Position numbers and translations under genes: made by a program. A stretch of DNA of 64,000 nucleotides from Clostridia bacterium (GTDB taxonomy: Bacteria > Bacillota > Clostridia > UBA1212 > UBA1255): NCBI GenBank assembly GCA_017560765.1, contig JAFZEI010000028.1:66690-130689 (forward strand), read 5' to 3'. Shown piece after piece: positions 3,971-39,572 of this stretch; the first letter of the stretch is position 1, and the number at the start of each line of letters is the position of its first letter. The notes below the pieces were generated by a model that did no database searches, was not told the origin of the DNA, and worked only from the letters and a program-made list of their open reading frames with translations.

Positions 3971-4921
3971 TTATTCCTCATGCCCAACAGGCGGCTTAAA
4001 CTCCATATTAATATCACTCAAATTATACGGTGTCGCCTGATACACGTAATAATTAAGCCAATTAGCATATAACAGATATGCATGACTTTTCCATTTAAAA
4101 TATGGTTTTGCCGTAGGATCATCATTAGGAAAATAATTTTGCGGAACATCAATTTCAAGTCCTTTTTCTTTATCCCTCTGATATTCTATTTTTAACGTAT
4201 CTCTATCATACTCAAGATGTCCCAACATAAAAATCTGTCGTCTGTCATGTGAAGCACAAATACATAATCCGGCTTCTTCTGAAGTGGCCAAAATGTCTAA
4301 TTCTGGATGTTTCTCAACATCTTCCATTTTTACACCCGTATAACGTGAATGAGGTACATAAAAGCAGTCGTCAAATCCTCGTAATAGCCTTGCAACTCTA
4401 TTGTGAGATTTATGCTCAAAAATGCCAAATAGCTTTTTATCCATTTGATATTTATCTATACCATAATGATAATACAATCCTGCCTGAGCACCCCAACAAA
4501 TATGAAATGTTGTTGTTACGTTTTTACGAGACCATTCCATGAGTCGGCAAAGCTCCTCCCAATAGCCTACTTCCTCAAAAGGCATTTGTTCGACAGGAGC
4601 TCCTGTGATTATGAGTCCGTCAAATTTTTGATCCTTAACATCATCCAAAGTAAGATAAAAAGCATTAAGATGACTCAATGATGTGTTTTTAGATACATGC
4701 GTAGCAGGATGAAGCAAAGTAGGCTCTACCTGCAGCGGAGTGTTACTAAGCAAGCGTAAAAGCTGTGTCTCCGTAACAATTTTTGTAGGCATCAAATTCA
4801 TTATTGCTATTTTTAAAGGTCTTATATCTTGATGAAAAGCCATGTTCTCATTCATTACAAACACATGTTCTTTTAAAAGTGTCTCTGCCGCCGGCAAATC
4901 ATTGGGTATCTTAATAGGCAT
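3971..4921 (-). CDS. metA: Homoserine O-acyltransferase MetA
   Basis: The 316-aa protein carries the [11 protein letters not shown]…IMNLMPTKI…ITGAPVE…ICWGAQA signature of MetA/HTS. Confidence 0.9.
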
Positions 4922-5042
4922 AACATTTCCCTTTCTGAATAATATGTTATCTCTTCTATTTTACACTTCTGTGGGATAATTGTCCATATCCGACATAAAT
5001 ATATTATGAACAAAAATTTGGAAATCGGAAAGGATAATAATT

Positions 5043-5981
5043 ATGATATTTTCCTGTTTAATAGGTATTTTCTCATTTATACTAATGATTTTATTTGTTA
5101 TTTTTAATTCAGATTGCATACCTGAAACACGCAATGCTCTCTATACTTTTTTAGATTCTGTTTTTCCTACAATGTTTCCCTTTTATGTATTGTCTTCCAT
5201 TCTTACTGCATGCTCCCCTTTTCAAAAAATGCTCCGCCCGTTAAAACCTATATCTCGCTTTTACAAACTGCCCAATGAATCAATTTCGGCAATCCTCTTA
5301 GGTTTACTGTGCGGTTTTCCTATAGGTGCAAAAGTCACCAGTGATTTATACAGTAAAAATTTAATTACGGAAAAAGAGGGCGCTTTACTTGCTTCCTTCA
5401 CAAATAACGCCGGGCCAATTTATACAATTACAATTATAGGAGGCATATTTCTTCAAAATAAAATGTATGGTTTTCTTATATGGATTTGTATAGCTTTATC
5501 CTCCTTAATTACAGGATTAATACTTTGCAAGCTTTGTCTAAATAAAGAAGAAAAGCCTATTGTAAATCACTATAATACCGAAACAAATGTTGACATAACA
5601 AAAGCTATTATGACAGGACTAAATACTGCACTTTACGTTGGTGCCGTTATAATATTCTTTGCTTCTGTAACATCCCTTTTAAAACAAATACCGTTTTTTT
5701 CTGATTCTGTTTATGTTTCCCTTTATTCCTTTTTGGAATTAACAGGCGGTCTAAAGGCAATGACTGCTCATATAACAAATACATTTCCGCAATTACCATC
5801 ATATCTTTATTGTGCTATTATTTCTGCCACAGCAGCATGGTCAGGAATTTGTATACACTTGCAAGTCTGTGGCATATTAAAAGCTTCAGGTATCAGTTTA
5901 AGATATTATCTTATCGGAAAAATACTTTCTTCATTTATATCATTTTTTACAACGATAATATTGTTTGCTGTAATAATATAA
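5043..5981 (+). CDS. Polytopic membrane protein, YlbJ-like sporulation integral membrane protein (nucleoside-recognition/Gate domain)
   Basis: The 312-aa protein has ~8 predicted TM segments, and motif LGLLCGFPIGAKVTSDLY…FTNNAGPIY resembles the YlbJ family. Confidence 0.45.
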   Translation: MIFSCLIGIFSFILMILFVIFNSDCIPETRNALYTFLDSVFPTMFPFYVLSSILTACSPFQKMLRPLKPISRFYKLPNESISAILLGLLCGFPIGAKVTSDLYSKNLITEKEGALLASFTNNAGPIYTITIIGGIFLQNKMYGFLIWICIALSSLITGLILCKLCLNKEEKPIVNHYNTETNVDITKAIMTGLNTALYVGAVIIFFASVTSLLKQIPFFSDSVYVSLYSFLELTGGLKAMTAHITNTFPQLPSYLYCAIISATAAWSGICIHLQVCGILKASGISLRYYLIGKILSSFISFFTTIILFAVII

Positions 5982-6013
5982 AAAGGACACAACCTTTCGA
6001 TTGTGTCCTTTTG
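5980..6013. terminator. Bidirectional rho-independent terminator between convergent genes
   Basis: Stem aggacacaa(5984-5992), loop cctttcga, stem ttgtgtcct(6001-6009), flanked by an A-run upstream and a T-run downstream. Confidence 0.6.
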
Positions 6014-6033
6014 AAAAACTTTTTAAATTCCTA

Positions 6034-7383
6034 TTATACTGTAAGGAGTTCCCAAATTTCGTTACATTTTTGTTCAAGTGCTGCAAAACCGTCTGAGTAG
6101 CTTGCAGAACCGGAAAGATCGTTTCTTAAAATGTTAATAACTCCTTCATCTATTGCCTCAGCAACCTCAATAGGCATACGGCAGTTAACCTGACCAGGTG
6201 TAGATGCTGTATCTGCTTTGTAAACAAATGCATCCCAGTTCTTTGTGCTCCAATTAGGATCATCAGGATACTTCCAAGCATCAAAGCCTTCTTCATCAAC
6301 AGATTTAAGAAGCGGTACTGAACCACCATTTCCTGCATTGAAGGATTTCTGTCCCTCAGGAGCGAAGAAGAATAATGCCAAAGCAGCAGCTGCTGTTACA
6401 TTCTGTGTTCTACTAAATACACCAACACCTGAAGCACCGCATCCAAAAGAAGGATTCTCAAACAAAGGCATATTTATAAGATCCCATTCAACACCCAAGT
6501 TATCATAGTTTTTACCTGCAGACTGAACTGAAGGATATACACAAGTCTTAAATACAGCTTCTTTACCTGCAAAGCCTTCTGCAGTATCGTTAACACCTGT
6601 AATCTTAGCGTAATCTTTCTTAGCTAAATCAAGTGCTTCTTTTACAGCTCTGAGAATCTTACCTTCTTCATCGATAAATGTAATCTTCTTATCTGTTGTG
6701 CTGCACCATGAATTTCTGTATGTATAAGCCTCAAAGAAAGCTGTATACACAGGTGAATAACCAAGGTTCAAGTCAATCGGATAATAATCATCACCATAAA
6801 GCTGCTCACAAAGAGCTTGGAACTCTGCCCATGTCCACTCCGGCTTAACTGATGCACTTGCACCTGCCTCAGTTACAGCTGTCTTGTTGTAAATCAAAGC
6901 CATGTGGTTATAGTCTCTGGGAACGAAATACAAACGTCCGTTAACAAGACCCAATGCATAAATACCACTGTATACATCGCTCAAATCGATATCGAACTTT
7001 TCAACAAAACCGTCAAGAGGAAGCAATGCTTTATCTGTAACTGCATATTTGTATGTATACAACTCTGCAAAATAGAATACATCACCGATATCAGCTGAAG
7101 CAATTCTTGTATCAGATGTAGCAGTGTAATCACGCTCAACCTTTACATCTTTATACTTCTTCTCAAAAGCAGAAATAAATCTCTCTGCTGCCTCCTTAGA
7201 AGCTGAGCTTGTAGCTGCAGGCTCGTATGTGAAAGTGATTTCACCCTCAGCAACACCACTCTTCTCGGCTTCTTCGAGTTGTTCCTGTGATACCATTTGC
7301 GGTTTGCCGCAAGCAACGATAGAAAATGTCATTACAAGAGCAAGCAGAATAACTGCTGCACTTTTGATATACTTTTTCATCAA
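6034..7383 (-). CDS. ABC transporter substrate-binding lipoprotein (family-1 extracellular solute-binding protein, CUT1-type)
   Basis: The 449-aa protein has a lipobox (LVMTFSIVACGKPQ) and the overall SBP_bac_1 pattern. It has its own promoter and terminator. Confidence 0.8.
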   Translation of the reverse strand: MMKKYIKSAAVILLALVMTFSIVACGKPQMVSQEQLEEAEKSGVAEGEITFTYEPAATSSASKEAAERFISAFEKKYKDVKVERDYTATSDTRIASADIGDVFYFAELYTYKYAVTDKALLPLDGFVEKFDIDLSDVYSGIYALGLVNGRLYFVPRDYNHMALIYNKTAVTEAGASASVKPEWTWAEFQALCEQLYGDDYYPIDLNLGYSPVYTAFFEAYTYRNSWCSTTDKKITFIDEEGKILRAVKEALDLAKKDYAKITGVNDTAEGFAGKEAVFKTCVYPSVQSAGKNYDNLGVEWDLINMPLFENPSFGCGASGVGVFSRTQNVTAAAALALFFFAPEGQKSFNAGNGGSVPLLKSVDEEGFDAWKYPDDPNWSTKNWDAFVYKADTASTPGQVNCRMPIEVAEAIDEGVINILRNDLSGSASYSDGFAALEQKCNEIWELLTV

Positions 7384-7436
7384 AATAACCTCCTAAAAAA
7401 ATATAATTTTATTTTCTATTGCATTAAAACAACTTT

Positions 7437-7464
7437 ATATTAACACAAGCAAACAATTTGTCAA
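7437..7464 (-). promoter_or_regulatory. Candidate sigma-A promoter for the 449-aa SBP gene
   Basis: On the minus strand: TTGACA(7464-7459), a 16-nt spacer, then TAATAT(7442-7437), located about 55 nt upstream of the RBS GGAGG. Confidence 0.4.
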
Positions 7465-7552
7465 TACGCGGTTTGGCAAAAAACACCTAAAAAACCACAA
7501 CTTAACAAAATATTAAAATCGCGTTAAATTTTATATGCATTTTTGATACTTA

Positions 7553-9088
7553 TTACCAATTTGCATTTGCCGCATCTTGAATCGTCTGTAACAATTCATC
7601 AATGTGTGTCATTGTACTGTCTTGAGTATAAGCATCAAATACATCAGCTATTGCATCTTTAACCTCTAAAGACGCATTCCATGACATGAAAGAAGTTAAA
7701 ACTGCAGGATAATCATTTTCTGAATAAAGTGAAAATACTGACGTATTCTTTCCTGACAATGGATATTCTCTCCAGAACTTCATACTGTTTGCTGATACTA
7801 CTGCCGGAACCTTGTAGCCAACATCTCCGGCATACGCTACTGCAGCCTCTTTTACCATTGCATACAATGCAAGGCTTTTTGAAAGCTTAATTGTATTTGC
7901 TATTTCTTTAGCTTCTTCCTCAAGTTCTTCATCGCTTTTATCAAAATCTGTTGTATAATCAGAAGACCTAACAACTTCACGATTAATAACAGCAAAACCA
8001 AGAGTTTTTACACCGATATTCTTATAAACAGTACCATCTTCTGATGCAAATCCCGGAAAATGAGCAAATTCCCAATCAAAAACAACTGCATCAGGATCAT
8101 CCTCTGTATCAACTGCCAAATAATTTTGCCATTTTACAACATCAGAGTGGTCTGCAACTATAATACCGTATTTTGACAAGTCCTCACCACGAACATCTTT
8201 TGTTTGTTTATTATCAACGTATCCTGTTCTTAAGAAATTGTCAGCAAAATACTTAAGTCCTTCAATTACATTAGGATCAGTAAGATTCAATTCTACTGTT
8301 TTGTCTGCAAAAGACACATCATTATATATACTGCCGCCAAAACTCTGTGCAAATGCACCCCAAATAGAATAGTCATTGTAATTCATAAGGATAGGTGTCT
8401 CTACACCACTTTCTCTAAGTGCACCAGCATAAGAAAGCAAGTCATCCCAAGTCCAAGAGTCTGACGGAACGGGGTTTTCTATTCCGGCTGCTTTTAATAA
8501 ATCCAAATTGAGAATTACAACTTGATTTAAATATTCAACAGGACACATATATAAACGACCATCATACATAGAAGCGTCGTATGCAGCCTGCATATATACC
8601 TTTGAAGGATAGAGCTTGCCAAAATTACTGTCAGTAAAATCGGTCACACCATTTGCTTCATTGCTGATATCAACAATCCAGCCTTTTTCAACATATTCAG
8701 GAAGCTTATCTGAACTGATGAGAACTACATCGCCTATATCTCCGCTCTCAATTCTTGAGTCAAGAGTGTTAAAATAATCCTCATAACCAAGTGTAGCGTC
8801 CAACTGAACATCCACACTGGGATATTGAAGTGCAAAAGACTGTGTGAACATAAACAAATCATTATCATTGTCGTTGTTCTCATCTTCGCCATACGGATCC
8901 TCTGCAGTATATTTTGCATTATATGAGGATATTATAATACTGCCTGCAAGATCCTCCGGAACAGGATTTGCCTTACCTGAGCTGCTGTCATCTTTGTCTT
9001 TGTCCTTACTACCGGAGCAACCGATAAAAGATACTGCCACAACAACAGCTAACATACATATTAAAGCAATACGCAATTTGTTAAACAT
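7553..9088 (-). CDS. ABC transporter substrate-binding lipoprotein (long family-1 SBP with acidic linker)
   Basis: The 511-aa protein has lipobox FIGCSGSKDKDKDD. It is the last gene of the long permease operon, with a 12-nt gap to the upstream permease. Confidence 0.75.
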   Translation of the reverse strand: MFNKLRIALICMLAVVVAVSFIGCSGSKDKDKDDSSSGKANPVPEDLAGSIIISSYNAKYTAEDPYGEDENNDNDNDLFMFTQSFALQYPSVDVQLDATLGYEDYFNTLDSRIESGDIGDVVLISSDKLPEYVEKGWIVDISNEANGVTDFTDSNFGKLYPSKVYMQAAYDASMYDGRLYMCPVEYLNQVVILNLDLLKAAGIENPVPSDSWTWDDLLSYAGALRESGVETPILMNYNDYSIWGAFAQSFGGSIYNDVSFADKTVELNLTDPNVIEGLKYFADNFLRTGYVDNKQTKDVRGEDLSKYGIIVADHSDVVKWQNYLAVDTEDDPDAVVFDWEFAHFPGFASEDGTVYKNIGVKTLGFAVINREVVRSSDYTTDFDKSDEELEEEAKEIANTIKLSKSLALYAMVKEAAVAYAGDVGYKVPAVVSANSMKFWREYPLSGKNTSVFSLYSENDYPAVLTSFMSWNASLEVKDAIADVFDAYTQDSTMTHIDELLQTIQDAANANW

Positions 9089-9100
9089 AAAAAACCTCCG

Positions 9101-10069
9101 TTACTCAATAACACCCAGTCGTTCAATACCTGATGCCAGTTTGTTCTGTCCGGCAATATAAACAATAAGTACAGGTATCATAACAAGCAAACATCCTGCA
9201 AAAAGCATTGGTTCGGTCATAGCCTTGTCAAAATCACTTGCTTCACCGGTGTAACCCATAATTTCCGCATAATATGTCTGAATTTTTTCAAGCTTAGGCT
9301 GAAGTGTCATCATATTTTGCTTAAACATATAGGTAGGAGCCTCATAGTTATCATTCCAGTGCCATACAAATGAGAAAATAAATACAATTGAAATGGCAGA
9401 TTTAACCAAGGGCAACATAATTTGAATAAATACTCTAAAAGGTCCTGCTCCGTCTATACGAGCCGCATCATCCATGGCATCCGGAATTCTCTGGAAGAAG
9501 TACATGTAAATCAATGCAAATAAAGCACCTCTTAAGCCAAGTCCAAATATACACGGTACAAGTATTGGTGCATACGTATTTGTTAAACCAAAAGTAGCCC
9601 ACATACCATAGGAAGACAAAATTGTTGTTTGAGGTGGTATCAACAATACCAAAATCAAGAATATAAACAAAAGATTTCTTCCTCTGAATTTAAATCTTCC
9701 TAATGCATATCCGATTATCGCACAGGAAACAGATTGCAATAACGCACTTCCCAAAGACAATATCAAAGAATTCAAGAATGAACGCGGATAAGAAAGACCT
9801 ATCCAAGCATCTACAAAGTTTTGATACTCAAATGACGTTGGAATCCATTCAACTGTTGGATCCATATAATCCTGATAAGACATCATAGATGTTGTCAAAA
9901 TATATATGAAAGGCAACAAAAACAAATATGCAAGTTCTATTAATACATAATACAGGAAAATACGTCCGATGATAAAGGTAATCTTTTTCTTTGCCTTATA
10001 TCCCAAATTTCTATATCTGTCAACAAGTCCACGTATAAAATCAGAAACTCTACCGAAAACCTTTGTCAC
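9101..10069 (-). CDS. Carbohydrate ABC transporter permease (MalG-like), GTG start overlapping the upstream stop (GTGA)
   Basis: The 6 TM segments include an EAA-type loop (IDGAGPFRVFIQIMLPL). The ATG-start ORF to 10138 overlaps the upstream gene by 73 nt. A GTG at 10069 with AGGAGG 8 nt upstream resolves the overlap. Confidence 0.8.
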   Translation of the reverse strand: MTKVFGRVSDFIRGLVDRYRNLGYKAKKKITFIIGRIFLYYVLIELAYLFLLPFIYILTTSMMSYQDYMDPTVEWIPTSFEYQNFVDAWIGLSYPRSFLNSLILSLGSALLQSVSCAIIGYALGRFKFRGRNLLFIFLILVLLIPPQTTILSSYGMWATFGLTNTYAPILVPCIFGLGLRGALFALIYMYFFQRIPDAMDDAARIDGAGPFRVFIQIMLPLVKSAISIVFIFSFVWHWNDNYEAPTYMFKQNMMTLQPKLEKIQTYYAEIMGYTGEASDFDKAMTEPMLFAGCLLVMIPVLIVYIAGQNKLASGIERLGVIE

Positions 10070-10953
10070 TTTAGCCACCTCCTTGTAAATAAGATGAATA
10101 TGAGAATTGTAACAAGAGCGAGAAGCATATACATCCAACTCAATGCAGATGCCATACCATACTCTGTTCCTTTTTCAGTCATTTCATTCATCATACTCAT
10201 TACCGGGTTATTATACTTTGTAAATGAGTCAACAAGAGCATATATACAATTCAAAATAACAAAAGGTGAAATATAAGGAAGTGTTACATGCCAGAAAGAT
10301 TCCCATGCTGTAGCTCCGTCAATTTCAACTACCTCATAAAGAATATCAGGAACGCTCTGCAAGGCAGCAAGGAATATCAAAATCTCAACACTACTGCTCC
10401 ACATGATATCTCCGATATACTGGGTAATTTTTCCTCCGAATGAAGAGAAAATACCTGAAGAAGAATTTACAAGAGAACCAAATACGCTGATACTTCCTAC
10501 TCCTTCGCCAAAGAGATAGCTCATTATTACTCCCGCAAGAATAACGGGGATAAAGAATATTACTCTAAAATAAACTCTTCCTGCAAACTTTTGTTTAAGA
10601 AGCACTGCAACAAACAATGCAAAGAAAACTATTATCGGAACTTGCCAAAGAGAATCTAAGAAGGAATTCAGCATAACCTCACCGACTTCCGGATCTTGAA
10701 CAATATCCACATAGTTCTGAATACCATTCCACTTACTCTGTCCTTCAAAACCATAAAGGTCTGTAAGCTGAGTAATATAAAAACTGATTCTGATTGAAAG
10801 CACTAACGGAACCATAATAAAGATTATGAAACCGATTACCCATGGTAATGAGAATCCCCATCCCTCAAGAGACTTTCTTCTTTCAAAGGAAATAACACTG
10901 CCTAAAGTACGCTTATGCGCTAATTTCTTTTTTGCTTTTATCTGTTTAGCCAT
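10066..10953 (-). CDS. Sugar ABC transporter permease (MalF-like)
   Basis: The 295-aa protein has 6 TM segments and an ABC-TM1 EAA-like motif (IDGATAWESFWHVTLPY). Confidence 0.85.
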   Translation of the reverse strand: MAKQIKAKKKLAHKRTLGSVISFERRKSLEGWGFSLPWVIGFIIFIMVPLVLSIRISFYITQLTDLYGFEGQSKWNGIQNYVDIVQDPEVGEVMLNSFLDSLWQVPIIVFFALFVAVLLKQKFAGRVYFRVIFFIPVILAGVIMSYLFGEGVGSISVFGSLVNSSSGIFSSFGGKITQYIGDIMWSSSVEILIFLAALQSVPDILYEVVEIDGATAWESFWHVTLPYISPFVILNCIYALVDSFTKYNNPVMSMMNEMTEKGTEYGMASALSWMYMLLALVTILIFILFTRRWLK

Positions 10954-10956
10954 GCA

Positions 10957-13446
10957 TTACTTCCCTCCCTTCTCTGAAATTTTATAGCTTTCTGCATTAA
11001 TTGTAATCTTTTCGCCATTAACATCCGTAACTGTTTGTTCAGCTGCCTCATAGTTTACATAAACTCTTGTACCGTCTGAATACTCTGTACAGAAAATATC
11101 AAGGCCGTCAACTACTCTAAAATGGTCTGAAATATCAAGTTTTGCAAAAGGTTTAACTGCCTCAGCAACAGCCTTATAACGCTCTACAATTTCATTTTTT
11201 AATGTTGAATATTCTGAACGATACAAACCATTGTAATAGGTATATCTCAATTCACTTGTCTTTTCTTCTGTAATCTCATAAGACATGAGAGAACCGTATT
11301 CTATAGAACGAAGAGTAAAGAATGCTTCATCGTCTTGATTGTTTACAGGAGCTGAATAATAGTCAACCAATCCATGATATACAATCTGCATAAAAGGAAT
11401 CTCTTCATCCAAAACAAGGTGAGATGACTTTTCAATAGGCATATCAACGATTATGTCTGCATACGGAATTGCGTATGAGTTTCCGCTATATACTGCAACA
11501 TCATCAAAGTTAGCACCGTATTTCTGAAGCCACTTTACATATAAGCTGATTGTCTGTACTCTAAACAAAGGATTTTCTTCGTTATAATCAGAAAATACAT
11601 TGTCACCCAACTGTTGTAAATCAACATTATTAGCACCAAAATCTTTGAGTCTTTCAATCAAATCATCAATAAGCTCTTGATCGAAATATTTAGGTCCCAT
11701 AACATAGAAGTCAGTTTTTCTGAACACACCTGATGTATCCTTTATATAGTAGTTAAGGTAAAAAGTATTCGCCTGTTTAACAATTGAGTTTCTAAATGTT
11801 GCACCATTAGTAGGGCTACCGTAAACAATTAAAAGGTTGTTATCAAGAGCAAGCGTAATATCTTTTCCTTTTGCCCAGCTGTACAAGTCTTTTAAATCAC
11901 TCTTTCCGCCGTAAGAACCATCAACCTTAAGCTTTGATGTGGCATTCCAGAAGTAACCGCCTTTCTGCCAGCCTAAAAGTGAAAGACGCAAATCAGAAGC
12001 ACCCATTGAATCAAGCTCATTATAAATAGAACGAACGTCCTCAAAATCAGTCATGACCTTAACTTGATCAAGGACACCACCTACTTCATTTTGAGCTCCC
12101 ATAAATAATTTTAAATTAAGTACTGGTGAATCACCTGAGTTTCCTGTAGCAAGTTCTACACCATAGCGTTCCTTCCATTGAGCAAGAAGATTAGAACGAA
12201 CTTCTTTTGCAACATCAACATAAGAATATTCTTCTGTTTCTGATGTTGTAATCTTAGTTCTTTGCTCAACATCACCTAATTGCTTATCCTTTACAACCAT
12301 GTCATACTGTGTACCACCGTTTGAAATCTGAAGTTTATAGAAATCACGGTAATTGTATTGGAAATAAATAGCATAGAAAGGAAGGTTTCTAATGCCGGGA
12401 TTTGAAATTTTAAGCTCAGCATTTGAATCTCCTTCTTTTATGAAAGAAGTCATTATAGAGTTTGCTGCGCTGTTAATATTCTCTCCATCATCATCAATAT
12501 TCTCAACGATACCATATGCGCCAATAGAAAGAAGCAAGTTGTTATAATCCGGTGCATCGCTTACATCGAATGTCAAATCATTACCATAAAGCTTCTTTGA
12601 ATACTCGTTGTAGTTTGTGATTCTTGCTGTGTCAAATTTTGTAAGAGCACCCGTACCATCCGGTGTTACAAAGTAACCCTCTTGACCGCTACGATGAGCA
12701 CCCATATAAGGAAGAACACTTAAAGACACCAAGAGAGGTCTTCTGTCTTGTTGCTCATTTTCAAGACCTTTTCTTTCGATTATACCATTTACAGGAATTC
12801 TGTAAACGAGCTCATCATTTTCGATAGTAATCTCAACAGAAAACTCTAATTCAAGTTCCTTCATCTCATAACGAAGACGAACACCGTTTTCTATGTAATA
12901 GGCAGTTTTAACATGTGCCATTTGATTTACACCAAGTGTGAATCCGCCGTCCATACCTGATTTTGTATAACCTACAAAAACAGGCGAAGTAATAAATTGA
13001 CCTGTTTCTGAATTTTCAGCATACAAATCCAAATCAGAAGTTTCGCCTTCTTCAAGTGTTGTTTCATGAATAGGCTCAGGATATGAGCGGAAAATCTCAC
13101 CCGTAACCAAATCCTCTAATATGAAAAGATTATCTCTGTTTGAGAAGCTTAGTTTCAATTTGTCATTCTCTGCTACAACTGTCATACCTTGATCAGTAAG
13201 CATTACACCGTTTATTCCCTTTGATTTATCAGGCGCAGCAACTTCTCTGATACCCTCTACACCATCTTTAGGGAAATTAACCTCATTTCCGTCGCCTGTG
13301 GCCACTGCAACGATGATAAAAGCAAGAATACAAACAAATACAAGAGCTACGCATCCCTTGATTATTTTTACTCTTTTTTCTCGTCTTGCTACTTGAAACA
13401 AAGGATCATTATTTTGTTTTTCTTCAACATTTTTCTTCTTAAACAA
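10957..13446 (-). CDS. Large membrane-anchored extracytoplasmic protein of unknown function (DUF5696-like by size and context; possible glycoside-hydrolase-like fold)
   Basis: The 829-aa protein has a cytoplasmic N-terminus, one TM helix (CVALVFVCILAFIIVAVA), and a large extracellular body. No recognisable catalytic motif. It is embedded between the permease pairs. Confidence 0.5.
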   Translation of the reverse strand: MFKKKNVEEKQNNDPLFQVARREKRVKIIKGCVALVFVCILAFIIVAVATGDGNEVNFPKDGVEGIREVAAPDKSKGINGVMLTDQGMTVVAENDKLKLSFSNRDNLFILEDLVTGEIFRSYPEPIHETTLEEGETSDLDLYAENSETGQFITSPVFVGYTKSGMDGGFTLGVNQMAHVKTAYYIENGVRLRYEMKELELEFSVEITIENDELVYRIPVNGIIERKGLENEQQDRRPLLVSLSVLPYMGAHRSGQEGYFVTPDGTGALTKFDTARITNYNEYSKKLYGNDLTFDVSDAPDYNNLLLSIGAYGIVENIDDDGENINSAANSIMTSFIKEGDSNAELKISNPGIRNLPFYAIYFQYNYRDFYKLQISNGGTQYDMVVKDKQLGDVEQRTKITTSETEEYSYVDVAKEVRSNLLAQWKERYGVELATGNSGDSPVLNLKLFMGAQNEVGGVLDQVKVMTDFEDVRSIYNELDSMGASDLRLSLLGWQKGGYFWNATSKLKVDGSYGGKSDLKDLYSWAKGKDITLALDNNLLIVYGSPTNGATFRNSIVKQANTFYLNYYIKDTSGVFRKTDFYVMGPKYFDQELIDDLIERLKDFGANNVDLQQLGDNVFSDYNEENPLFRVQTISLYVKWLQKYGANFDDVAVYSGNSYAIPYADIIVDMPIEKSSHLVLDEEIPFMQIVYHGLVDYYSAPVNNQDDEAFFTLRSIEYGSLMSYEITEEKTSELRYTYYNGLYRSEYSTLKNEIVERYKAVAEAVKPFAKLDISDHFRVVDGLDIFCTEYSDGTRVYVNYEAAEQTVTDVNGEKITINAESYKISEKGGK

Positions 13447-15535
13447 GATAAATCATCTCCTTACCAAATTGAATAATAAAGTCAAACATTTGGGCTGCAA
13501 GACCGTATACTATAAGGAACAGTAACACTACCGCAACTACGCCGACAGCGGTCAGCATAAATACAACAAATGCCTTTACAGGATGGAAACCATGTATACC
13601 TTTTATACAGAAGTACACAAGAGCAATCGTGTAAATCGTAAGTAATGTGCCAAGAATTCCGTAAATACCGGACTCATTTAATGTAAGCAAATGTGTAAGT
13701 GCTGCATACGGTAATGAAAGAAGCATCAAAGGACCATGACAGTATGCACCGCCTATAACAACGTCTCTGAATCTACCTTCACCGTACATAATCGTTGTAA
13801 CACCATAATTTACTATACAAACAACACCCCAAGGTAAAAACGCAAAGAAGAAAGTCAATACCGGTTCTATTGTATCGAGTGATGCTCCACCTCTGTAAAT
13901 AAAGCTTGTAGCGTATGCAGAAATAACAGAAACAATCGCATACAAAATCATTATAGCTATCATATCTAAATATGAACCCTGGTTTTCATATCTGATTTCT
14001 TCAAAGCCGTCTACAGGATGACGCATTATGTTAGTAACGCGACCAAAGAAATGCTTAATTGCAGTAAAGAAATTTTTCCTTTCCACAGGCACTCCGTATT
14101 TCTTTCTTCTGAATTTCTTAATAGTAACAACGGCAACCCAAAGAGCTAACAACACAACAATTGTAATTACTATCCATGAGAAATAATCTCTTAAGAAATC
14201 CGCTCTCATTTCTTCATAAGCTTCTGATGCATATGTTGCATTTTCAGCTTCATAGAAGAAATCGTAAGCTTCACTGTTAAATTCTTCTCTTAATTTAATG
14301 TTACCTATATTAACAAGTGCGAGAGAATAATAATTACTCTTCTCAACAACTTTCTCCCATTCTTTAAGGGATTCCTCGTACTTACCATCGCTGTAATATG
14401 CGTTTGCAACATGTACTAGATTTGCAAATTCTGTAGGTTTAAATACTGTTATATTACCTGTTGTTTTATTAAGTACATAAACTCTTCCATTTCCGTCAGT
14501 TTCTATACTAACCGGATACGAAAGCTGACCGTAACCATTACCCTTTGTGCCAAAAGCAAATAAGTTATTGCCTCTTTCATCATACTCATAAATTCTGCCA
14601 TACTGTCTGTCTACAATAAGCATGTTATTGTATTTATCAACTGTAACATCACAGAATATCTGATTTATTGTTGAAAAGCTTGACATGATACTGTTGTCAC
14701 GGAAATCATACGCTCCATAAAGTACATCCGAACCGCCAATGTTGATTTTACGAACTTGCGGAGGAGTTTCCGTTGTTGTTGTAGCATACATATAACCGTC
14801 TGCACTGGAGTAAATGTTAGTAAATGTATAAGGAAGTGTAACGACTGAACCCTTTCTGTCCTCACGGCTCCAAAGAAGCTTTGCTAATGATTCCCAAAAT
14901 GAGAGGTTAACTTTATTCGTACCATAATAACTTATAAACTCACCATTTGAGCTAAGCTGCATAATACCGTTACTGTCACCTTTGTTAGTTACATACATAA
15001 AACCTCTTGAATCTTTTGTTATCTTCTCCGGCTGATAGGAGAAATCCTTTGAAAGAAGGTCACTTTCAGGTTTTGAGTACGAATAACGAAGGTTTCCGTA
15101 TTTTGTAAATTCAACAATACGACCGTTTCCTGAGTCTGCAACAATAATTGCTCCGTCATCAGGGTCTACATATACACCTGTAGGATCTTTTAAAGCAGAC
15201 AAATCACCATCTACATATGTTCCGTCACTGCTGATTTCGAAAAGGAATTTATAGTCAGCACCATATACAACAATTCTGTTGTTACCTGTGTCTGCAACAT
15301 AAATCTTTCCTTCATCATCAATAAACATATCCTCCGGATTTTTGAGCTTTCCTGTTTCTGTTGAAAGAAAGTCGATAACCGTACTTGTTTCATAAGCTGC
15401 AGGAATAGGTTTTGCGGTCTTCTCTTTTTCCTGAATATAGTAGTTTGCATAAGGTGTTCTTGCACTTGCAGTTATACCTGTTGAAAGTACTAAGGAAGTT
15501 AATATAAGAAGACATATAAATTTTTTAAACTTCAT
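13439..15535 (-). CDS. NHL-repeat beta-propeller fused to a C-terminal Yip1-domain membrane module (YIP1 family protein)
   Basis: Signal peptide, then about five NHL-like blades (IYVADTGNNRIVVY, IIVADSGNGRIVEF, MLIVDRQYGRIYEY, VYVLNKTTGNITVF), a TM segment, then 5 further TMs typical of Yip1. Confidence 0.7.
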   Translation of the reverse strand: MKFKKFICLLILTSLVLSTGITASARTPYANYYIQEKEKTAKPIPAAYETSTVIDFLSTETGKLKNPEDMFIDDEGKIYVADTGNNRIVVYGADYKFLFEISSDGTYVDGDLSALKDPTGVYVDPDDGAIIVADSGNGRIVEFTKYGNLRYSYSKPESDLLSKDFSYQPEKITKDSRGFMYVTNKGDSNGIMQLSSNGEFISYYGTNKVNLSFWESLAKLLWSREDRKGSVVTLPYTFTNIYSSADGYMYATTTTETPPQVRKINIGGSDVLYGAYDFRDNSIMSSFSTINQIFCDVTVDKYNNMLIVDRQYGRIYEYDERGNNLFAFGTKGNGYGQLSYPVSIETDGNGRVYVLNKTTGNITVFKPTEFANLVHVANAYYSDGKYEESLKEWEKVVEKSNYYSLALVNIGNIKLREEFNSEAYDFFYEAENATYASEAYEEMRADFLRDYFSWIVITIVVLLALWVAVVTIKKFRRKKYGVPVERKNFFTAIKHFFGRVTNIMRHPVDGFEEIRYENQGSYLDMIAIMILYAIVSVISAYATSFIYRGGASLDTIEPVLTFFFAFLPWGVVCIVNYGVTTIMYGEGRFRDVVIGGAYCHGPLMLLSLPYAALTHLLTLNESGIYGILGTLLTIYTIALVYFCIKGIHGFHPVKAFVVFMLTAVGVVAVVLLFLIVYGLAAQMFDFIIQFGKEMIYLV

Positions 15536-15551
15536 TGCCCTTAAACCTCCG

Positions 15552-16421
15552 TTATTTAATTCCTGAGTGTGCCATTGTGTCTTGAACTCTGCTCTGGTTA
15601 ATGATGAAGATTATGATACTCGGAAGAGTCATAATTAAACCAGATGCAGCTCCGGCACCTGTTCTGGCAATACCGCCGCCAATAGTTGACATGAAAAATC
15701 CTAATGTTCTTAACTGCTCTTTGTAAATATACGTTGTAGATGTACCTGTCTCGCCCCAAATACCACCAAACGTAAGAATAATAACAGTTGCTTGAGCGTT
15801 TTTAAGAAGTGGGATTGCTATCTTTTGATAAAGTTGCCATTCAGAAGCACCGTCAATCTTACCGGCTTCGAAAATATCATTCGGAACCGTATCAAGGAAC
15901 TGCTTCATAAGGAACAAACACGTTGTATTGGCAAGAGCCGGTATTATATAAACCAAATAGGTATTATCAATTCCAATTGATGTAATAATCAAATATGCCG
16001 GAATACCTGCCGCTGATGCAATAAACATCATTGATGTTGTTACAAGGCTCATCAAACCTTTTTTGCCTGGGAACTTGTGTTTTGACAAAGGATAAGATGT
16101 CATTGTCAAAAGCCATACCAAACAGAAAATATAACATACTGTTATCAAAATTGTATTAAAGAGATACCTTGTAAACGGTACTGCACTATTAGCTGTTATA
16201 GCCGTCAAATCCTTAAAGTTTTGAATCGTCGGATTCTTAACAAAGAATGTAGGCGGATAGAGGAACAACTCCTCCGGTGGCTTAAATGCTGTACACACAA
16301 GGTATATCAACGGAAGCAAAGATACTGCGCCGGCTAAAGTAAGGAATACTAATATGACGACTTTACCGTGATCTTTACGTTTTTTAGCTTTCTTTAAATA
16401 ATCAACGTCTACCTGAAACAT
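15552..16421 (-). CDS. Carbohydrate ABC transporter permease (MalG-like)
   Basis: The 289-aa protein has 6 TM segments and an EAA loop (IDGASEWQLYQKIAIPLL). Confidence 0.85.
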   Translation of the reverse strand: MFQVDVDYLKKAKKRKDHGKVVILVFLTLAGAVSLLPLIYLVCTAFKPPEELFLYPPTFFVKNPTIQNFKDLTAITANSAVPFTRYLFNTILITVCYIFCLVWLLTMTSYPLSKHKFPGKKGLMSLVTTSMMFIASAAGIPAYLIITSIGIDNTYLVYIIPALANTTCLFLMKQFLDTVPNDIFEAGKIDGASEWQLYQKIAIPLLKNAQATVIILTFGGIWGETGTSTTYIYKEQLRTLGFFMSTIGGGIARTGAGAASGLIMTLPSIIIFIINQSRVQDTMAHSGIK

Positions 16422-16425
16422 ATTA

Positions 16426-17403
16426 TCACTCCTTCTCGCCTAAAACTTTAAATGCAACACGACCGATACCGAGAATCATAACAGAAAGAACCACGGCAAT
16501 AGCAGATGCGTAACCTACCTCAAATCGTGTACCTGAATAGTCACTAAGATGCAACATAATTGTAAGAGCAGCGTCCTCAGGGCTCGGGTGTCCGGCAATC
16601 GTTCCGCCTACAGAGAATGAACCTGTAATTGTAATAACAGCGGCAAACAACAATTGCGGCATTGTTTGAGGAACGTCTACATACAAAAGCTTTTGAAATC
16701 TTGACGTAACACCGTCAACCGAAGCTGCATCGTAAAGTTCTCTGTCAACACCACGGAAACCGGCAACGAATGAAAGGAACTGTGTACTCAAACTTGACCA
16801 CAACGCAACAATGATAACGACAGGCATAATATAATTAACATCCTGTAGCCATTGAATAGGTTCATAAATTAAACCTAAATTTAAAAGCAAGGAGTTAAGG
16901 TAACCTGTACTATCGTTTGAAAACATTACCGCCCAAACAACAGCCATGGCAACACCGCTTGTAAGAGCAGGTGCATAGAACGCCAAAACGTAAATAGGTC
17001 TTACCTTATCCGGAACCTGGTTAATAAACCACGCAAAGAAATATGACGCAATATAAGAAACAGGTCCAACAATTACTGCGTATGTCAAAGTATTTGTAAA
17101 TGCCTTTAAGAAAAGAGCATCATCAACAAACAAATAAACATAGTTTTCAAGTCCGTTAAAAACCGGATCTTCGAAAATGTTCCAATATGTAAAACTGAGA
17201 CCTAATGATGCCAACAAAGGTAACAACGAAAAAGTAATAAAGATAATGAAGAATGGAGCTACCATCGCATAAGACATCTTATGTGTCCACATTTCGTGGA
17301 GTGTGTATCCAAGTCTCTTCTCTACATTGAAAAATCTCTTTTTCGGTGCAACGGGCTTATTTGCTTCAGCTTTTTTTAATTTTTTCTCTTCTTTCTTACT
17401 CAC
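16426..17403 (-). CDS. Sugar ABC transporter permease (MalF-like)
   Basis: The 325-aa protein has 6 TM segments and an EAA loop (VDGVTSRFQKLLYVDVP). Confidence 0.85.
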   Translation of the reverse strand: MSKKEEKKLKKAEANKPVAPKKRFFNVEKRLGYTLHEMWTHKMSYAMVAPFFIIFITFSLLPLLASLGLSFTYWNIFEDPVFNGLENYVYLFVDDALFLKAFTNTLTYAVIVGPVSYIASYFFAWFINQVPDKVRPIYVLAFYAPALTSGVAMAVVWAVMFSNDSTGYLNSLLLNLGLIYEPIQWLQDVNYIMPVVIIVALWSSLSTQFLSFVAGFRGVDRELYDAASVDGVTSRFQKLLYVDVPQTMPQLLFAAVITITGSFSVGGTIAGHPSPEDAALTIMLHLSDYSGTRFEVGYASAIAVVLSVMILGIGRVAFKVLGEKE

Positions 17404-17418
17404 AAATTATCCCTCCAA

Positions 17419-20400
17419 TCACTTTGCAGCAGCACGATCAATATAAATCGCACCATCTTTGGGGATGCCAAACTCTGCTTGCTTACGACGCATCTCTTTA
17501 TTGATTTCTTTTACAGCATCTTCAAGAGCAATTCTACCGCTAAGTCCCTGCATAACAGTTTGGTTCAACGCTGTAACCAAATATCTTGATGTATAGTAAT
17601 CACCCATAGTTCCCGGCGTTTCATCCAAATGCTCCCATTGAGCATTAATAACATCAAGCTCCTCCTGTGAATAAGGAAGTGATTGAAGTGCTACCTTGTT
17701 TGCAGGATTCCAACGAGAAGCAACGCCAAATGTAGCCTCTACCTCTCTACCGTATTCTGCCTGAACAGCATTAGAAAGCCACCATTGAATAAACGTCCAT
17801 GACTCAGCATAATGTTGTTTTTCTTCGTTGTCCTGTTTTATGATGATACAACAAGAAGCAACACCACTTATGGATCTGTCAATAAACTCTTCGCCTGTCT
17901 CCTCATCAACATGAGCCTTACCGGGAAGTAATGTCATTGCCCACTTACCATTAAGCTCAGGAGCGGAATAATAAAGTTGTTGATAGAATGTTAAGTCAGC
18001 AATACCTATAGGCATCTCACCTGACTTAAATCTCATGTAGAAGTTTGCCGCATATACGAAATTATACTGGAGATATAAGTTTGAATATTCCATAAAAGCA
18101 TCGTATGCGAGCTCAGTATTCAATGCTGATTGCATTGCATCAGGAGTGTAGAAATCTCCACCATACTGATAAAGCATAGGCGTGTAACCTCCTACTCCAT
18201 AGTTAAAACAGAAGTCATAACCTGAGTTTGTCAAAGTAGGAAGAATATCATATACCTCATCCCAAGTCTCCGGAGGCTCTACTCCTAAAGTATCAAAAAT
18301 ATCAGTTCTGTAGAACAAAGCGTTCCAGTTTTGAGTCTCAGGGAAAGCGTAGTAGTCACCCAAATAGTTAAAAGGAACAAACGCCTCATCATGGTATGAT
18401 TGTATACCATACGGATTATCTGTATTTTTCCAGAGCTCATCAAATGTCATTACATCTATGCCATTATATTCGTCAACGCATACCTCATTAAGAGGGGCAA
18501 GAGCACCTCTGATGGCAAATTCAAAAACAGAACCTTTACCAATTGAAATAGCGAGGTCAGGAGCAGTTCCTGCAACATAACGTGGCATAATCAATCCCTC
18601 AGAAGATCCGGCTACCATGTTGATGTTTACTTTGATACCATACTCTGGTGTAAACTGCTCACTTACCATATTACGCATAATATCTACGTGTTCACGACCT
18701 CTGGCAACATAAACCTCAATCTCCGGCATACCTTCTGTATCGAGACCCTCACGAGCACCGGCGTTCTCATATTTTTCATTGTCAAATGAATTTAAAAATC
18801 TTACAGCACCAACATATAAGCTCTGCCAAGCATTGCTTCTTGCATCAGGATAATCATAATCCTTGGGAGCTGCAACCATGTAGTCAATAGCAATAGGTTG
18901 TTCCTTAATAGAAACCATTGTATTACTCAAACCGGTCTGTGCATTTGTAATATCGTTAAGAGAAATAGCAACTTTTTCTAAATCTTCATCGAAATCCTCA
19001 AACAATTCGCTGGCTACTTTAACAGCAGAAGCATAAGAAGTAACCTTACCGCCATTTAAGTAAATGATATCTTCATAACACTTGTTGAAAACATCAATGT
19101 ATGTCTTAATATCCTCTTGAATTGTAGGGATATAAAGCTGTAAATCATAGTCTCTGTTTTTATCTATTGTATATCCACCTGATGATGTACGCGCCGAAGC
19201 AGTAATTTTAACAATTTTATTTACAAGTGTTGATATTGAGTCCATAGATTCTTCTATTCTCTGGAGAGAATGACGAAGCGGACCAACTTTATTAACTAAA
19301 GAAATTGTATGATCGCCTTCTTCTAAGTAAAAGAGATATGGATTTTGATCTGCATCAAGCAAAGAGACAGCCGTCCAACCATCTGCATAAGGGAAACAAT
19401 ATTCTTCCATTTCTGCAAAAGGAATAGAACCGTCAATCTTTATCTCTTTAAAAGATGAAACGTATGTAAATTGAGATTTATAACGGAATCCCAATTCATA
19501 CCAACCTGTCTCAGGTACATTAAATGTCCATTCTACCTTATCTCCGCCTACAGACCATCTGTCACCACCGAATATATTAAACAGAGTAGCTTTATAAGAC
19601 GGAAGTGTTGCGTTTGAAGTTGTATAATAGTCATTGTCTGTTTCCATTCTGACACTTATACTTGTTGTCCAATCCGGAACCTCCATTTCCTTCTTTACAG
19701 ATGTTCCTGTATAAATGGCAGAATCTGAAAAACCTTTTTGTGTTTTATATTCTGCATAGGAAGGATTTACAACAGGAGCAATGAATTTAATATTGCGTAC
19801 CGCGCCGCTCTCTTTTGAGAACGTAAGAGCGATTTTGTGTGATCCTTTTTGCAAATAGAAACGATACGGATTTCTGTAAAGTCCGTCAGGGTTTGACATA
19901 ACAGTATTTTGCCAATCATAAATTTCTTGTGATTTCGGACGAATTTGATTGCCTACAACATCTTTATTTGAAGCATAATCATAATCATAAAAACCGTACA
20001 TTCTCTTTAATGCCATATTGGAAGCATCTTCAAAAGGAAGTTTACCATCTATAGTGAAATTCACCAGCATATCCGTATCACGGCCTGCAAGCATAAGATA
20101 CTCAATATAAAGTGAATATAAGCCGGCTTCATCAACTGTAATATCAAATTCCAGCTTTGTACCTTCATTGGAAACATAGAGCGCTCCTGCAATGTCTTCT
20201 AAAGAAAGAGACTTTTCGGAATTATCACTTTTATCAGTATACTTTACTCCGTTTTTATACTCTTCAATCTCATTAAGAAGAAAAACTTCTGACTCAGTAA
20301 GTTCCTTGTATTGAGAAAGGAAATCTCTAAGCCTTGAATCGGTAAGGTAGTCTTTAAGACCTTCTGCTGTATAGTCTTTTTCATCTACCCCTGATACACC

Positions 20401-20736
20401 ATATTTTTCCTTTAACGCAGCAATCTTGTTAGCCGTATCTGTATGCGACTTTGCAATAAGAGCCGCTACATCCACACTAATAGGATCTCCGGAATAATAC
20501 TTGTACCCCTTGGACGCATACTTCGTCAGAACCTTGCCGTATTCCAAAAAGCTGTTATCCAAACGTTCTTCATTTGCAACGAACGGATCAAAATCCATCT
20601 CGTCATAGTTCTCATAATTGTACTGAACTGTTTCAGCATCTCTGTTGCCATAAACGACAAAGACAACTGCAGCCACAAGAACAAGTGCGACTATGACAAT
20701 CGTTAAACGAATCATCTTCTTTTTTTTCTTAGTCAT
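17419..20736 (-). CDS. Giant membrane-anchored extracellular protein: N-terminal TM anchor, two internally duplicated beta-sandwich (CBM-like) modules, and a C-terminal family-1 solute-binding-protein domain
   Basis: The 1105-aa protein starts with TM helix LTIVIVALVLVAAVVFVVY. A tandem duplication is visible (GLYSLYIEY…IDGKLPFED…NPYRFYLQKGSHKIAL versus GWYELGFRY…IDGSIPFAE…NPYLFYLEEGDHTISL). The C-terminal ~450 aa resemble an ABC SBP. Confidence 0.7.
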   Translation of the reverse strand: MTKKKKKMIRLTIVIVALVLVAAVVFVVYGNRDAETVQYNYENYDEMDFDPFVANEERLDNSFLEYGKVLTKYASKGYKYYSGDPISVDVAALIAKSHTDTANKIAALKEKYGVSGVDEKDYTAEGLKDYLTDSRLRDFLSQYKELTESEVFLLNEIEEYKNGVKYTDKSDNSEKSLSLEDIAGALYVSNEGTKLEFDITVDEAGLYSLYIEYLMLAGRDTDMLVNFTIDGKLPFEDASNMALKRMYGFYDYDYASNKDVVGNQIRPKSQEIYDWQNTVMSNPDGLYRNPYRFYLQKGSHKIALTFSKESGAVRNIKFIAPVVNPSYAEYKTQKGFSDSAIYTGTSVKKEMEVPDWTTSISVRMETDNDYYTTSNATLPSYKATLFNIFGGDRWSVGGDKVEWTFNVPETGWYELGFRYKSQFTYVSSFKEIKIDGSIPFAEMEEYCFPYADGWTAVSLLDADQNPYLFYLEEGDHTISLVNKVGPLRHSLQRIEESMDSISTLVNKIVKITASARTSSGGYTIDKNRDYDLQLYIPTIQEDIKTYIDVFNKCYEDIIYLNGGKVTSYASAVKVASELFEDFDEDLEKVAISLNDITNAQTGLSNTMVSIKEQPIAIDYMVAAPKDYDYPDARSNAWQSLYVGAVRFLNSFDNEKYENAGAREGLDTEGMPEIEVYVARGREHVDIMRNMVSEQFTPEYGIKVNINMVAGSSEGLIMPRYVAGTAPDLAISIGKGSVFEFAIRGALAPLNEVCVDEYNGIDVMTFDELWKNTDNPYGIQSYHDEAFVPFNYLGDYYAFPETQNWNALFYRTDIFDTLGVEPPETWDEVYDILPTLTNSGYDFCFNYGVGGYTPMLYQYGGDFYTPDAMQSALNTELAYDAFMEYSNLYLQYNFVYAANFYMRFKSGEMPIGIADLTFYQQLYYSAPELNGKWAMTLLPGKAHVDEETGEEFIDRSISGVASCCIIIKQDNEEKQHYAESWTFIQWWLSNAVQAEYGREVEATFGVASRWNPANKVALQSLPYSQEELDVINAQWEHLDETPGTMGDYYTSRYLVTALNQTVMQGLSGRIALEDAVKEINKEMRRKQAEFGIPKDGAIYIDRAAAK

Positions 20737-20818
20737 ACGATCAACCTTCCGTGATATTTTGGTTATTAAAAACGATAATAATTATCACTATGCCTTTTTG
20801 GGCAATCTAAACAAAAGA

Positions 20819-20847
20819 ATTATATATATTTCGTGCAACTGTGTCAA
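20819..20847 (-). promoter_or_regulatory. Consensus sigma-A promoter driving the 8-gene ABC/YIP1 operon
   Basis: On the minus strand: TTGACA(20847-20842), a 17-nt spacer, then TATAAT(20824-20819). An ~85-nt leader ends in RBS GGAAGG 8 nt before the ATG at 20736. Confidence 0.55.
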
Positions 20848-20898
20848 TAACAAAATGCCAAAAATACTTTAGTTATTTTGTGTGCAAATTGTAAATAA

Positions 20899-22353: not shown

Positions 22354-22409
22354 GCCCAACGCCTCCGAAAAGATTATACTATTATAATTATGAAAAGTAC
22401 ACAAATTTC

Positions 22410-22438
22410 TTGACTTTTTTTCGTTGTCTGTTTATTAT
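22410..22438 (+). promoter_or_regulatory. Sigma-A promoter of the thrC-hom-ask operon
   Basis: TTGACT(22410-22415), a 17-nt spacer, then TATTAT(22433-22438). Confidence 0.5.
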
Positions 22439-22497
22439 AGCCTGTGTGTCTTTATGCACAAAGGAAAGATTTTTTCAAAATTTTGGAGTGATATAAA

Positions 22498-23991: not shown

Positions 23992-24013
23992 TATAATATT
24001 TAGGAGGATAAAA

Positions 24014-25270: not shown

Positions 25271-25288
25271 TTTATTCAGAGGTGTTAT

Positions 25289-39538: not shown

Positions 39539-39572
39539 CTTAAATATTTCTTCCTTTATAACAAATTCTTTA

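Follow-up and report, generated by a model that had tools for sequence, protein, structure and literature searches.

Oligosaccharide uptake by Gram-positive bacteria is usually pictured as the work of free substrate-binding proteins (SBPs) and a simple ATP-binding cassette (ABC) importer. A more complex arrangement is suggested by the xylan degradation locus of Caldicellulosiruptor bescii, which holds the operon xloEFG-X-GH129-axoFGE (Rodionov et al. 2021, PMC8579813). Here, X is Athe_0177, which is annotated as "NHL repeat-containing protein" and to which no role is assigned (supplement of PMC8579813). The systems flanking X-GH129 are predicted CUT1 transporters for xylo-oligosaccharides and arabinoxylo-oligosaccharides, and all genes of the operon are up-regulated on xylan and Avicel (PMC8579813). 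Furthermore, XynR was experimentally demonstrated to bind an operator upstream of Athe_0174 (PMC12285236). A second point of reference is YknW, which belongs to the Yip1 family and modulates the assembly of the YknXYZ ABC transporter (PMC4887032). In our literature search, YknW was the only studied bacterial Yip1 member; the search returned no paper mentioning DUF5696, nothing on NHL repeats together with Yip1 and an SBP, and no mention of Athe_0177 or Csac_2416 in the main text of a paper.

In this study, we analyzed a stretch of 64,000 nucleotides from the genome of a Clostridia bacterium (GCA_017560765.1, contig JAFZEI010000028.1, positions 66,690 to 130,689), hereafter the window, with a focus on the gene at 13439–15535 (minus strand). 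It encodes a protein of 698 amino acids composed of a propeller, a tetratricopeptide repeat (TPR)-like module, a transmembrane (TM) helix and a Yip1 domain, and is referred to as NHL-Yip1. As in the C. bescii operon, the gene order in the window is SBP, two CUT1 permeases, NHL protein, a protein of the glycoside hydrolase (GH) family 129 type, two CUT1 permeases and SBP. We regard it as about an even call that NHL-Yip1 is a dedicated, non-catalytic accessory subunit of a glycan-uptake cassette of Gram-positive bacteria, which comprises two CUT1 importers and the GH129-like protein.

The NHL-Yip1 open reading frame (ORF) begins with ATG, with GGAGG 10 nt upstream, and its product matches two Pfam families, each above the curated cut-off. 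These are NHL (PF01436; E=3.7e-17, 61.8 bits against a cut-off of 20, with two repeats individually significant) and Yip1 (PF04893; residues 502–673, E=1.6e-13, 51.3 bits against 28.6, covering profile positions 2–172 of 173). An AlphaFold2 (AF2) model based on a 29-sequence alignment reached a mean predicted local distance difference test score (pLDDT) of 82.8. It contains, in this order, a signal-peptide helix, six four-stranded blades, four short helices, a helix at 433–480 and a bundle at 489–697. Hydropathy and conservation delimit a signal peptide at residues 1–25 (15461–15535, minus strand as for all elements of this gene), with an MKFKK n-region, a hydrophobic core and the cleavage context ASA|R; A25, P28 and Y29 are almost invariant in homologues. 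Based on Pfam, AF2 and Foldseek, residues ~30–367 form a six-bladed NHL beta-propeller (14435–15448). It is followed by TPR-like helical hairpins at residues 369–429 (14249–14431), which correspond to the four short helices of the model. TPR_11 matches residues 377–413 below its cut-off (E=0.0015, 18.6 bits against 26.8), and TPR_1/2/12/16 matches are present on homologues. According to hydropathy and AF2, TM1 (residues 453–473, 14117–14179) lies inside the long stalk helix 433–480. Charge and hydropathy define a basic cytoplasmic linker after it (residues 474–501, 14033–14116), and the Yip1 domain with five TM helices (residues 502–698, 13442–14032) completes the protein.

An earlier note on this DNA, made from the sequence alone, had described a signal peptide, NHL blades, a TM segment, a cytoplasmic linker and a five-TM module of Yip1-like topology, and this description is borne out by Pfam, hydropathy and AF2. 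The four blade motifs quoted there are present in the translation at residues 78–91, 130–143, 305–318 and 352–365. Its "five or more" blades do form a propeller, for which the AF2 model gives an exact count of six; the TPR-like module had gone unmentioned.

The propeller is predicted to be extracytoplasmic and the Yip1 module to begin on the cytoplasmic side. Placement of the propeller outside the cell follows from the signal peptide, the basic linker after TM1 and the acidic ectodomain. The 48 residues directly after TM1 contain 11 K+R in the window protein, and the TM1-Yip1 linker of 82 homologues shows a median of 10 K+R per 47 residues (net +5), while the ectodomain has a net charge of −18. 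Signal peptide, positive-inside analysis and AF2 model agree in this respect, so that the extracellular topology proposed earlier stands against a cytoplasmic one. The Yip1 helices are predicted at 522–697 by hydropathy and AF2. The domain carries an HP-DGF juxtamembrane motif and a cytoplasmic loop with an invariant G585 and a near-invariant G587. DLYGP and GY motifs are the hallmark of the eukaryotic Yip1p/YIPF class according to the Pfam description; the literal DLYGP string is absent from NHL-Yip1, where the equivalent juxtamembrane segment reads RHPVDGFEEI. A sequence search of the PDB with the Yip1 part gave a chance match alone (E=1.5), and the Foldseek output for the NHL-Yip1 model consisted mostly of propellers. 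No kinase domain was found in NHL-Yip1 by the Pfam scan.

Structural comparison of the propeller with the PDB using Foldseek returned TRIM71, Lin41, Brat, TRIM2 and Pizza6 designs at E=4e-18 to 1e-11, with TM-scores to the target of 0.8–0.86 for TRIM71, Brat and Pizza6. The most conserved propeller residues belong to the structural NHL motif (D82, N85, R87, D134 etc.), and no enzyme-family profile scored above threshold on NHL-Yip1. Since the conserved residues are mostly those of the NHL motif, the enzyme profiles stay sub-threshold and the fold is matched best by NHL domains of the binding type, the propeller is probably non-catalytic. Membership in SGL/lactonase, ScyF/ScyE, CIS12, DUF4073 and SSL_N was considered; each match fell below its cut-off and was treated as generic propeller noise. 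Two features could represent functional sites. One is a set of residues, D69 and D296 (>90% conserved) and N240 (72%), which replace the NHL consensus Gly in strand A of three blades. The other is an insertion between blades 3 and 4 at residues 207–234 (NKVNLSFWESLAKLLWSREDRKGSVVTLP; 14834–14917, minus strand), which is highly conserved in sequence while its pLDDT is <50, and which is a candidate partner-binding element.

In order to describe the distribution of this architecture, we combined homologue searches, context look-ups and two surveys of genomic neighbourhoods. NCBI holds an identical protein, annotated as "YIP1 family protein [Clostridia bacterium]", and homologues with the same NHL and Yip1 architecture reach down to ~30% identity (Paenibacillus), with more found in Halanaerobiales and Natronospora. 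The Yip1 part as query recovered 1123 cluster representatives at E<=1e-3, or 431 at the stricter E<=1e-10, which fall into two main length classes of ~665–745 and ~195–240 amino acids. The 829-residue product of the adjacent gene matches Pfam DUF5696 at E=5.8e-130. The description of the pair as two orphan proteins in the earlier note therefore no longer holds, as both belong to large families.

The genome survey started from an NHL-Yip1 alignment and covered one genome per species, giving 80 loci that were annotated with phmmer. It used two patterns, one of them a generic NHL motif, and the 492 relatives it yielded are no estimate of family size. The order bigSBP-permA-permB-NHL/Yip1-DUF5696-permC-permD was found in all 77 of the 80 loci that were neither cut off nor off-target; of the three outside the count, L084 and L086 are fragments at contig ends, and L087 is an NHL protein from Nitrospira that is unrelated. 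The best match of each permease was its positional counterpart in the window. Context look-ups also showed an identical cassette order for NHL-Yip1 homologues at 50% and 31% identity and for three DUF5696 relatives at only 21–25% identity. The cassette occurs in Paenibacillus, Cohnella, Bacillus, Lederbergia, Alkalihalobacillus, Alkalibacterium, Ruminiclostridium, Lachnospiraceae, Oscillospiraceae and Ruminococcus, and, outside these taxa, once in a Bellilinea (Chloroflexota) metagenome-assembled genome (MAG). No named Caldicellulosiruptor homologue was among the 120 matches listed in our homologue searches, including the search with L032 as query.

As a reverse test, metagenomes were scanned with the DUF5696-specific motif [IV]PFx[QG][IM][VI][YL]HG, which is independent of NHL and Yip1, resulting in 80 loci. 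NHL and Yip1 were located directly upstream of DUF5696 in 56/56 loci with at least 2.5 kb of upstream sequence, with permease pairs on both sides. As the genome survey and the reverse metagenome test agree, the linkage of NHL/Yip1 and DUF5696 is obligate in both directions in these samples. Among the genome and metagenome loci, we saw no NHL/Yip1-DUF5696 pair without flanking permeases.

The immediate upstream neighbour of the cassette was a MalK-type ATPase (ABC_tran+OB_MalK+TOBE_2) in 15/65 loci, and the commonest neighbour downstream was an SBP. Other flanking genes encode GH26, GH43, GH51-C, carbohydrate-binding module (CBM) family CBM65, a glucoamylase family resembling GH144 and regulators of the AraC or LacI type; single look-ups also placed GH10 and GH16 beside the cassette. 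In locus L005, the cassette is flanked by response regulators of the AraC type. The same locus (14522–18236), which is of the split type described below, shows two ABC_tran proteins of ~610–625 amino acids after the fourth permease, followed by GH10 and GH43 genes.

A considerable fraction of the cassettes encodes the propeller half and the Yip1 half as separate adjacent genes, namely 24/81 genome loci and 31/56 metagenome loci. In these split forms, a propeller-TPR-TM1 protein of ~490–505 amino acids ends in the basic linker, and a Yip1 protein of ~205–225 amino acids starts at the HP-DGF motif. An 8-nt overlap between the two genes is frequent, and the site of the break falls exactly within the cytoplasmic linker, i.e. 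at residues 474–501 of the window protein. Frameshift artefacts were considered as a source of the split genes and ruled out by the 24 genome and 31 metagenome loci, many of which show a clean overlap of 8 nt at one and the same position in the linker. In a clustering analysis, split forms mostly grouped together, yet fused forms at ~40% identity were interspersed among them, and the state differed within four nearest-neighbour pairs. As the forms interleave, the split or fused state changed more than once. With split adjacent genes in ~30–55% of loci, the window protein can thus be understood as a fusion of two partner subunits. By the Rosetta-stone argument, such natural fission and fusion suggests that the two halves work as one unit and that Yip1 is more than a passive anchor.

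The partner encoded directly downstream is the DUF5696 protein of 829 amino acids (10957–13446, minus strand). Its AF2 model (pLDDT 79, predicted TM-score 0.84) begins with an N-terminal TM helix, followed by a beta-sandwich, a (beta/alpha)8 barrel and, at the C-terminus, another beta-sandwich. The best Foldseek matches were ZgGH129 (5opq, E=6e-32) and NagBb (~1e-25; 5wzp, E=9e-26), with GH101, GH36 and GH97 next in the fold matches. At the sequence level, the DUF5696 family profile matched ZgGH129 (E=5e-8) and NagBb (E=4e-4). Based on this modelled structure, DUF5696, which officially counts as a family without known function, shows the three domains of a GH129-like glycosidase fold. The acidic residues D263, D290, D620, D680 and E716 are conserved. 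Giant DUF5696 proteins of 1200–1958 amino acids are encoded in four loci from uncultured Oscillospiraceae and Eubacteriales MAGs (L006, L038, L047 and L050); their extra regions gave no Pfam match.

The stop codon of NHL-Yip1 and the start codon of the DUF5696 gene share an 8-nt overlap, TTGTTTAA (13439–13446, minus strand). The earlier note had reported this overlap correctly in length and partner gene and had assigned it to the start of NHL-Yip1; it is the stop that is joined, to the TTG start of the DUF5696 gene, which has AAGGAG upstream. Overlaps of 8–14 nt at the same junction are also present in two homologous loci, L001 and L003. Together with the upstream Shine-Dalgarno sequence, these overlaps make the translational coupling suggested earlier plausible.

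The remaining cassette genes of the window are all encoded on the minus strand. The first one (17419–20736) encodes a giant membrane-anchored SBP of 1105 amino acids with a TM anchor, two beta-sandwich repeats and an SBP fold. Its N-terminal 650 residues contain two copies of a CBM6/35-like beta-sandwich unit and precede the SBP fold, to which a TIGR03850 region at 689–869 and the SBP_bac_1/8 matches of homologues point. Weak but recurrent matches on homologues were Golvesin_C (19/71), CBM_35 (12/71) and GH115_C (10/71). A TM anchor and a duplicated beta-sandwich before the SBP fold are unusual for an ABC SBP, and this layout is kept in ~70 homologous cassettes. Next come permease A (16426–17403) and permease B (15552–16421) and, beyond NHL-Yip1 and DUF5696, permease C (10066–10953) and permease D (9101–10069, 322 amino acids). 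All four were assigned to BPD_transp_1 by Pfam, and permease A forms one orthologous group across loci. Reading the translations by eye, we identified EAA-type loops in all four permeases (EAA in B, EAA-like in A and C), which points to two complete type I importers. For permease D, the mechanical ORF start TTG 10138 is probably wrong; we prefer GTG 10069, which overlaps the permease C stop (GTGA) and has AGGAGG 9 nt upstream. The last gene (7553–9088) encodes a second SBP of 511 amino acids (SBP_bac_1) with a lipoprotein-type signal (...FIGC). Every extracytoplasmic component of the cassette is membrane-tethered.

The cassette is tightly packed, with intergenic gaps of −8 to +16 nt. A promoter-like sequence upstream of its first gene (20819–20847, minus strand) matches the sigma-70-type consensus TTGACA-17-TATAAT at 12/12 positions and is the sole 12/12 site within 6000–23000; its designation rests on this consensus match. 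A third SBP of 449 amino acids (SBP_bac_1; 6034–7383, minus strand) lies 170 nt downstream of the cassette and has its own promoter-like site at 7464–7437. A search with a MalK query found no MalK-type ATPase in the window. The one ABC ATPase that it detected there (38606–39607, minus strand) lacks the OB and TOBE C-terminal domains of MalK, and the cassette ATPase is therefore probably encoded outside the window. There are no glycosidases or xylanases adjoining the window cassette and no regulator in the window. As adjacent xylanases are missing, the substrate of this cassette may differ from that of C. bescii.

The cassette is embedded in housekeeping genes (20899–26644 and 3971–5981), which are syntenic with a relative (L003/L004) that has a 50%-identical NHL-Yip1. 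One flank encodes a Mur ligase, threonine synthase, homoserine dehydrogenase and aspartokinase, and the other a Gate-domain protein and homoserine O-succinyltransferase. Because of this synteny, the cassette is regarded as stably chromosomal in this lineage. Further along (1342–3950, minus strand), a leucine-rich repeat protein of 360 amino acids with matches to several such families is preceded by a 509-residue protein without any match in Pfam; their genes share a 4-nt overlap.

Our reading of NHL-Yip1 as an accessory subunit builds on the fixed gene order, the split and fused forms and the packed operon with stop/start overlaps and one consensus promoter. The YknW precedent, the co-induction in C. 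bescii and the MalK-type, SBP and GH neighbours argue in the same direction. Of the receptor, sensor or transporter-assembling scaffold offered by the earlier note, we infer the scaffold, from the invariant gene order and the split and fused forms. In such an arrangement, the five-TM Yip1 module would pack in the membrane against the permeases, and the TPR stalk and six-bladed propeller would project outside, level with the SBPs and the glycosidase domain. The propeller may then act as a non-catalytic platform that holds the glycosidase and/or the incoming oligosaccharide beside the two importers, and trimmed products could pass straight to the SBPs. Energy would be supplied by a MalK/MsmK-type ATPase encoded elsewhere. 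A bolder proposal is that the seven core genes form one obligate membrane supercomplex. Here, NHL/Yip1 and the anchored GH129-like protein would bridge two CUT1 importers fed by the CBM-bearing SBP, as a Gram-positive counterpart of the Sus "utilisome" of Bacteroidota in which extracellular trimming is coupled to the import of two products and Yip1 serves as a general ABC adaptor. We put this forward tentatively and consider it rather doubtful.

Physical association with the cassette partners, binding instead of catalysis and the substrate in this organism are matters that we infer. Several points weigh against an accessory subunit. Gene order and co-transcription can persist without a stable complex. 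Athe_0177 is likened to NHL-Yip1 by gene order and annotation, not by sequence or Yip1 content. YknW of Bacillus subtilis/amyloliquefaciens is, like NHL-Yip1, a Pfam Yip1 membrane protein encoded with ABC transporter genes, and the four-component YknWXYZ transporter requires it for assembly or activity; however, it partners a MacB-type exporter and a membrane fusion protein, whereas NHL-Yip1 is linked to CUT1 type I importers. Neither MacB nor membrane fusion protein genes were found in the NHL-Yip1 cassette, and we know of no propeller ectodomain on YknW. In addition, judged from the sequence, D69, D296 and N240 may make up a site for metal binding or catalysis, similar to SGL-type propeller enzymes, and SGL (PF08450) matches residues 73–157 with 22.3 bits, just under the cut-off of 26.3 (E=1.2e-4). 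These last features lead to the view that the propeller is a metal-dependent lactonase, esterase or lyase (SGL/PON/Vgb type) that modifies or debranches the glycan, with Yip1 as a mere anchor. The three residues occupy inner-strand positions that are normally Gly in NHL, many homologues carry a precomputed PF08450 assignment, one of them is named "sugar lactone lactonase YvrE", and Virginiamycin B lyase is found among the fold matches (rank 39). We nevertheless consider an enzyme unlikely. SGL remains under the Pfam cut-off, ScyF (NF035926; 74.3 against 350) and ScyD-ScyE (NF033206; 27.9 against 80) remain far below the NCBIfam cut-offs, and the best structural matches are the non-enzymatic NHL proteins TRIM71, Brat and Pizza6. 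K171 and N240 are only 59–72% conserved, and a plain anchor needs neither a conserved five-TM Yip1 with its own cytoplasmic motifs nor a separate Yip1 gene.

A sensor or gate, in which the propeller binds glycan and a signal through TM1 and Yip1 switches the importers on or informs a regulator, would fit the role of extracellular NHL propellers as sensor domains in PknD. The Pizza6 designs, which derive from the PknD propeller, are strong fold matches. The cytoplasmic elements H506-P507, G585 and G587 are conserved, and AraC-type response regulators flank the L005 cassette, with AraC- or LacI-type regulators adjoining some others. Such a role appears improbable to us, since an output domain of the kinase, HAMP, GGDEF or DNA-binding type is missing and the cytoplasmic part comprises a 45-residue basic linker and short loops. 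Moreover, regulators are not consistently adjacent to the cassette, with none in the window; the linkage is to DUF5696 and the permeases. We attach a similarly low probability to NHL-Yip1 serving solely the DUF5696 glycosidase, as its specific partner, chaperone or anchor in a two-protein ecto-enzyme with merely co-transcribed importers. The NHL-Yip1 gene always directly precedes that of DUF5696, its stop codon overlapping the start codon of the latter, and the two co-occur in both search directions. However, the four permease genes are equally invariant in position, no pair without flanking permeases was seen, and an ABC transporter is the target of the one bacterial Yip1 protein studied so far. 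We therefore retain the accessory subunit of the complete cassette as the favoured explanation.

Compared to free SBPs and a simple importer, the cassette suggests a more elaborate unit of four permeases, two SBPs (one with CBMs), a GH129-like ecto-protein and a propeller/Yip1 subunit. The same order is shared by Clostridia of gut and rumen, Paenibacillus and Bacillus of soil, Halanaerobiales and the thermophilic Caldicellulosiruptor. The two domain families were already known, the protein family is catalogued, widespread and uncharacterised, and the C. bescii cassette had been listed. What this analysis adds is NHL-Yip1 as an obligate component, split or fused, of a deeply conserved seven-gene core, which pairs two ABC importers with a GH129-like ecto-protein and represents a distinct variant of the Yip1 accessory-subunit theme. 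If NHL-Yip1 is indeed an organising subunit, this would provide a second functional context for bacterial Yip1 domains after YknW, explain why two importers stay together and offer a marker by which loci for hemicellulose utilisation could be predicted in microbiome genomes. C. bescii is genetically manipulable and strongly expresses the operon on xylan; hence, the question is directly testable.

Comparing our results to known systems, the C. bescii cassette has been treated as two independent transporters (PMC8579813), unlike the single unit proposed here. Among propeller proteins, PknD of Mycobacterium tuberculosis likewise presents a six-bladed NHL propeller on the outer side of a Gram-positive-type membrane, where one TM helix carries it. 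It couples this propeller to a cytoplasmic Ser/Thr kinase, whereas NHL-Yip1 carries a Yip1 bundle without a known signalling domain. The TRIM-NHL proteins (TRIM71/LIN-41, Brat, TRIM2) provide the best fold matches of the propeller (E 4e-18 to 1e-13), but they are cytoplasmic and RNA-binding, with 14–23% identity, and the likeness lies in the fold only. Eukaryotic Yip1p/YIPF Golgi proteins share the Pfam family, the five-helix topology and the cytoplasmic N-terminal segment with NHL-Yip1, while they differ in the DLYGP motif, in their Rab/Yif1 partners, of which there are none in bacteria, and in cellular context. Finally, the Sus "utilisome" of Bacteroidota, which combines SusCD with glycan-binding proteins and glycosidases, is comparable by analogy only, in that capture, glycosidase and importer functions are encoded together. 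Sus consists of unrelated proteins and employs TonB-dependent transport across the outer membrane, whereas the cassette is predicted to mediate ABC import over a single membrane.

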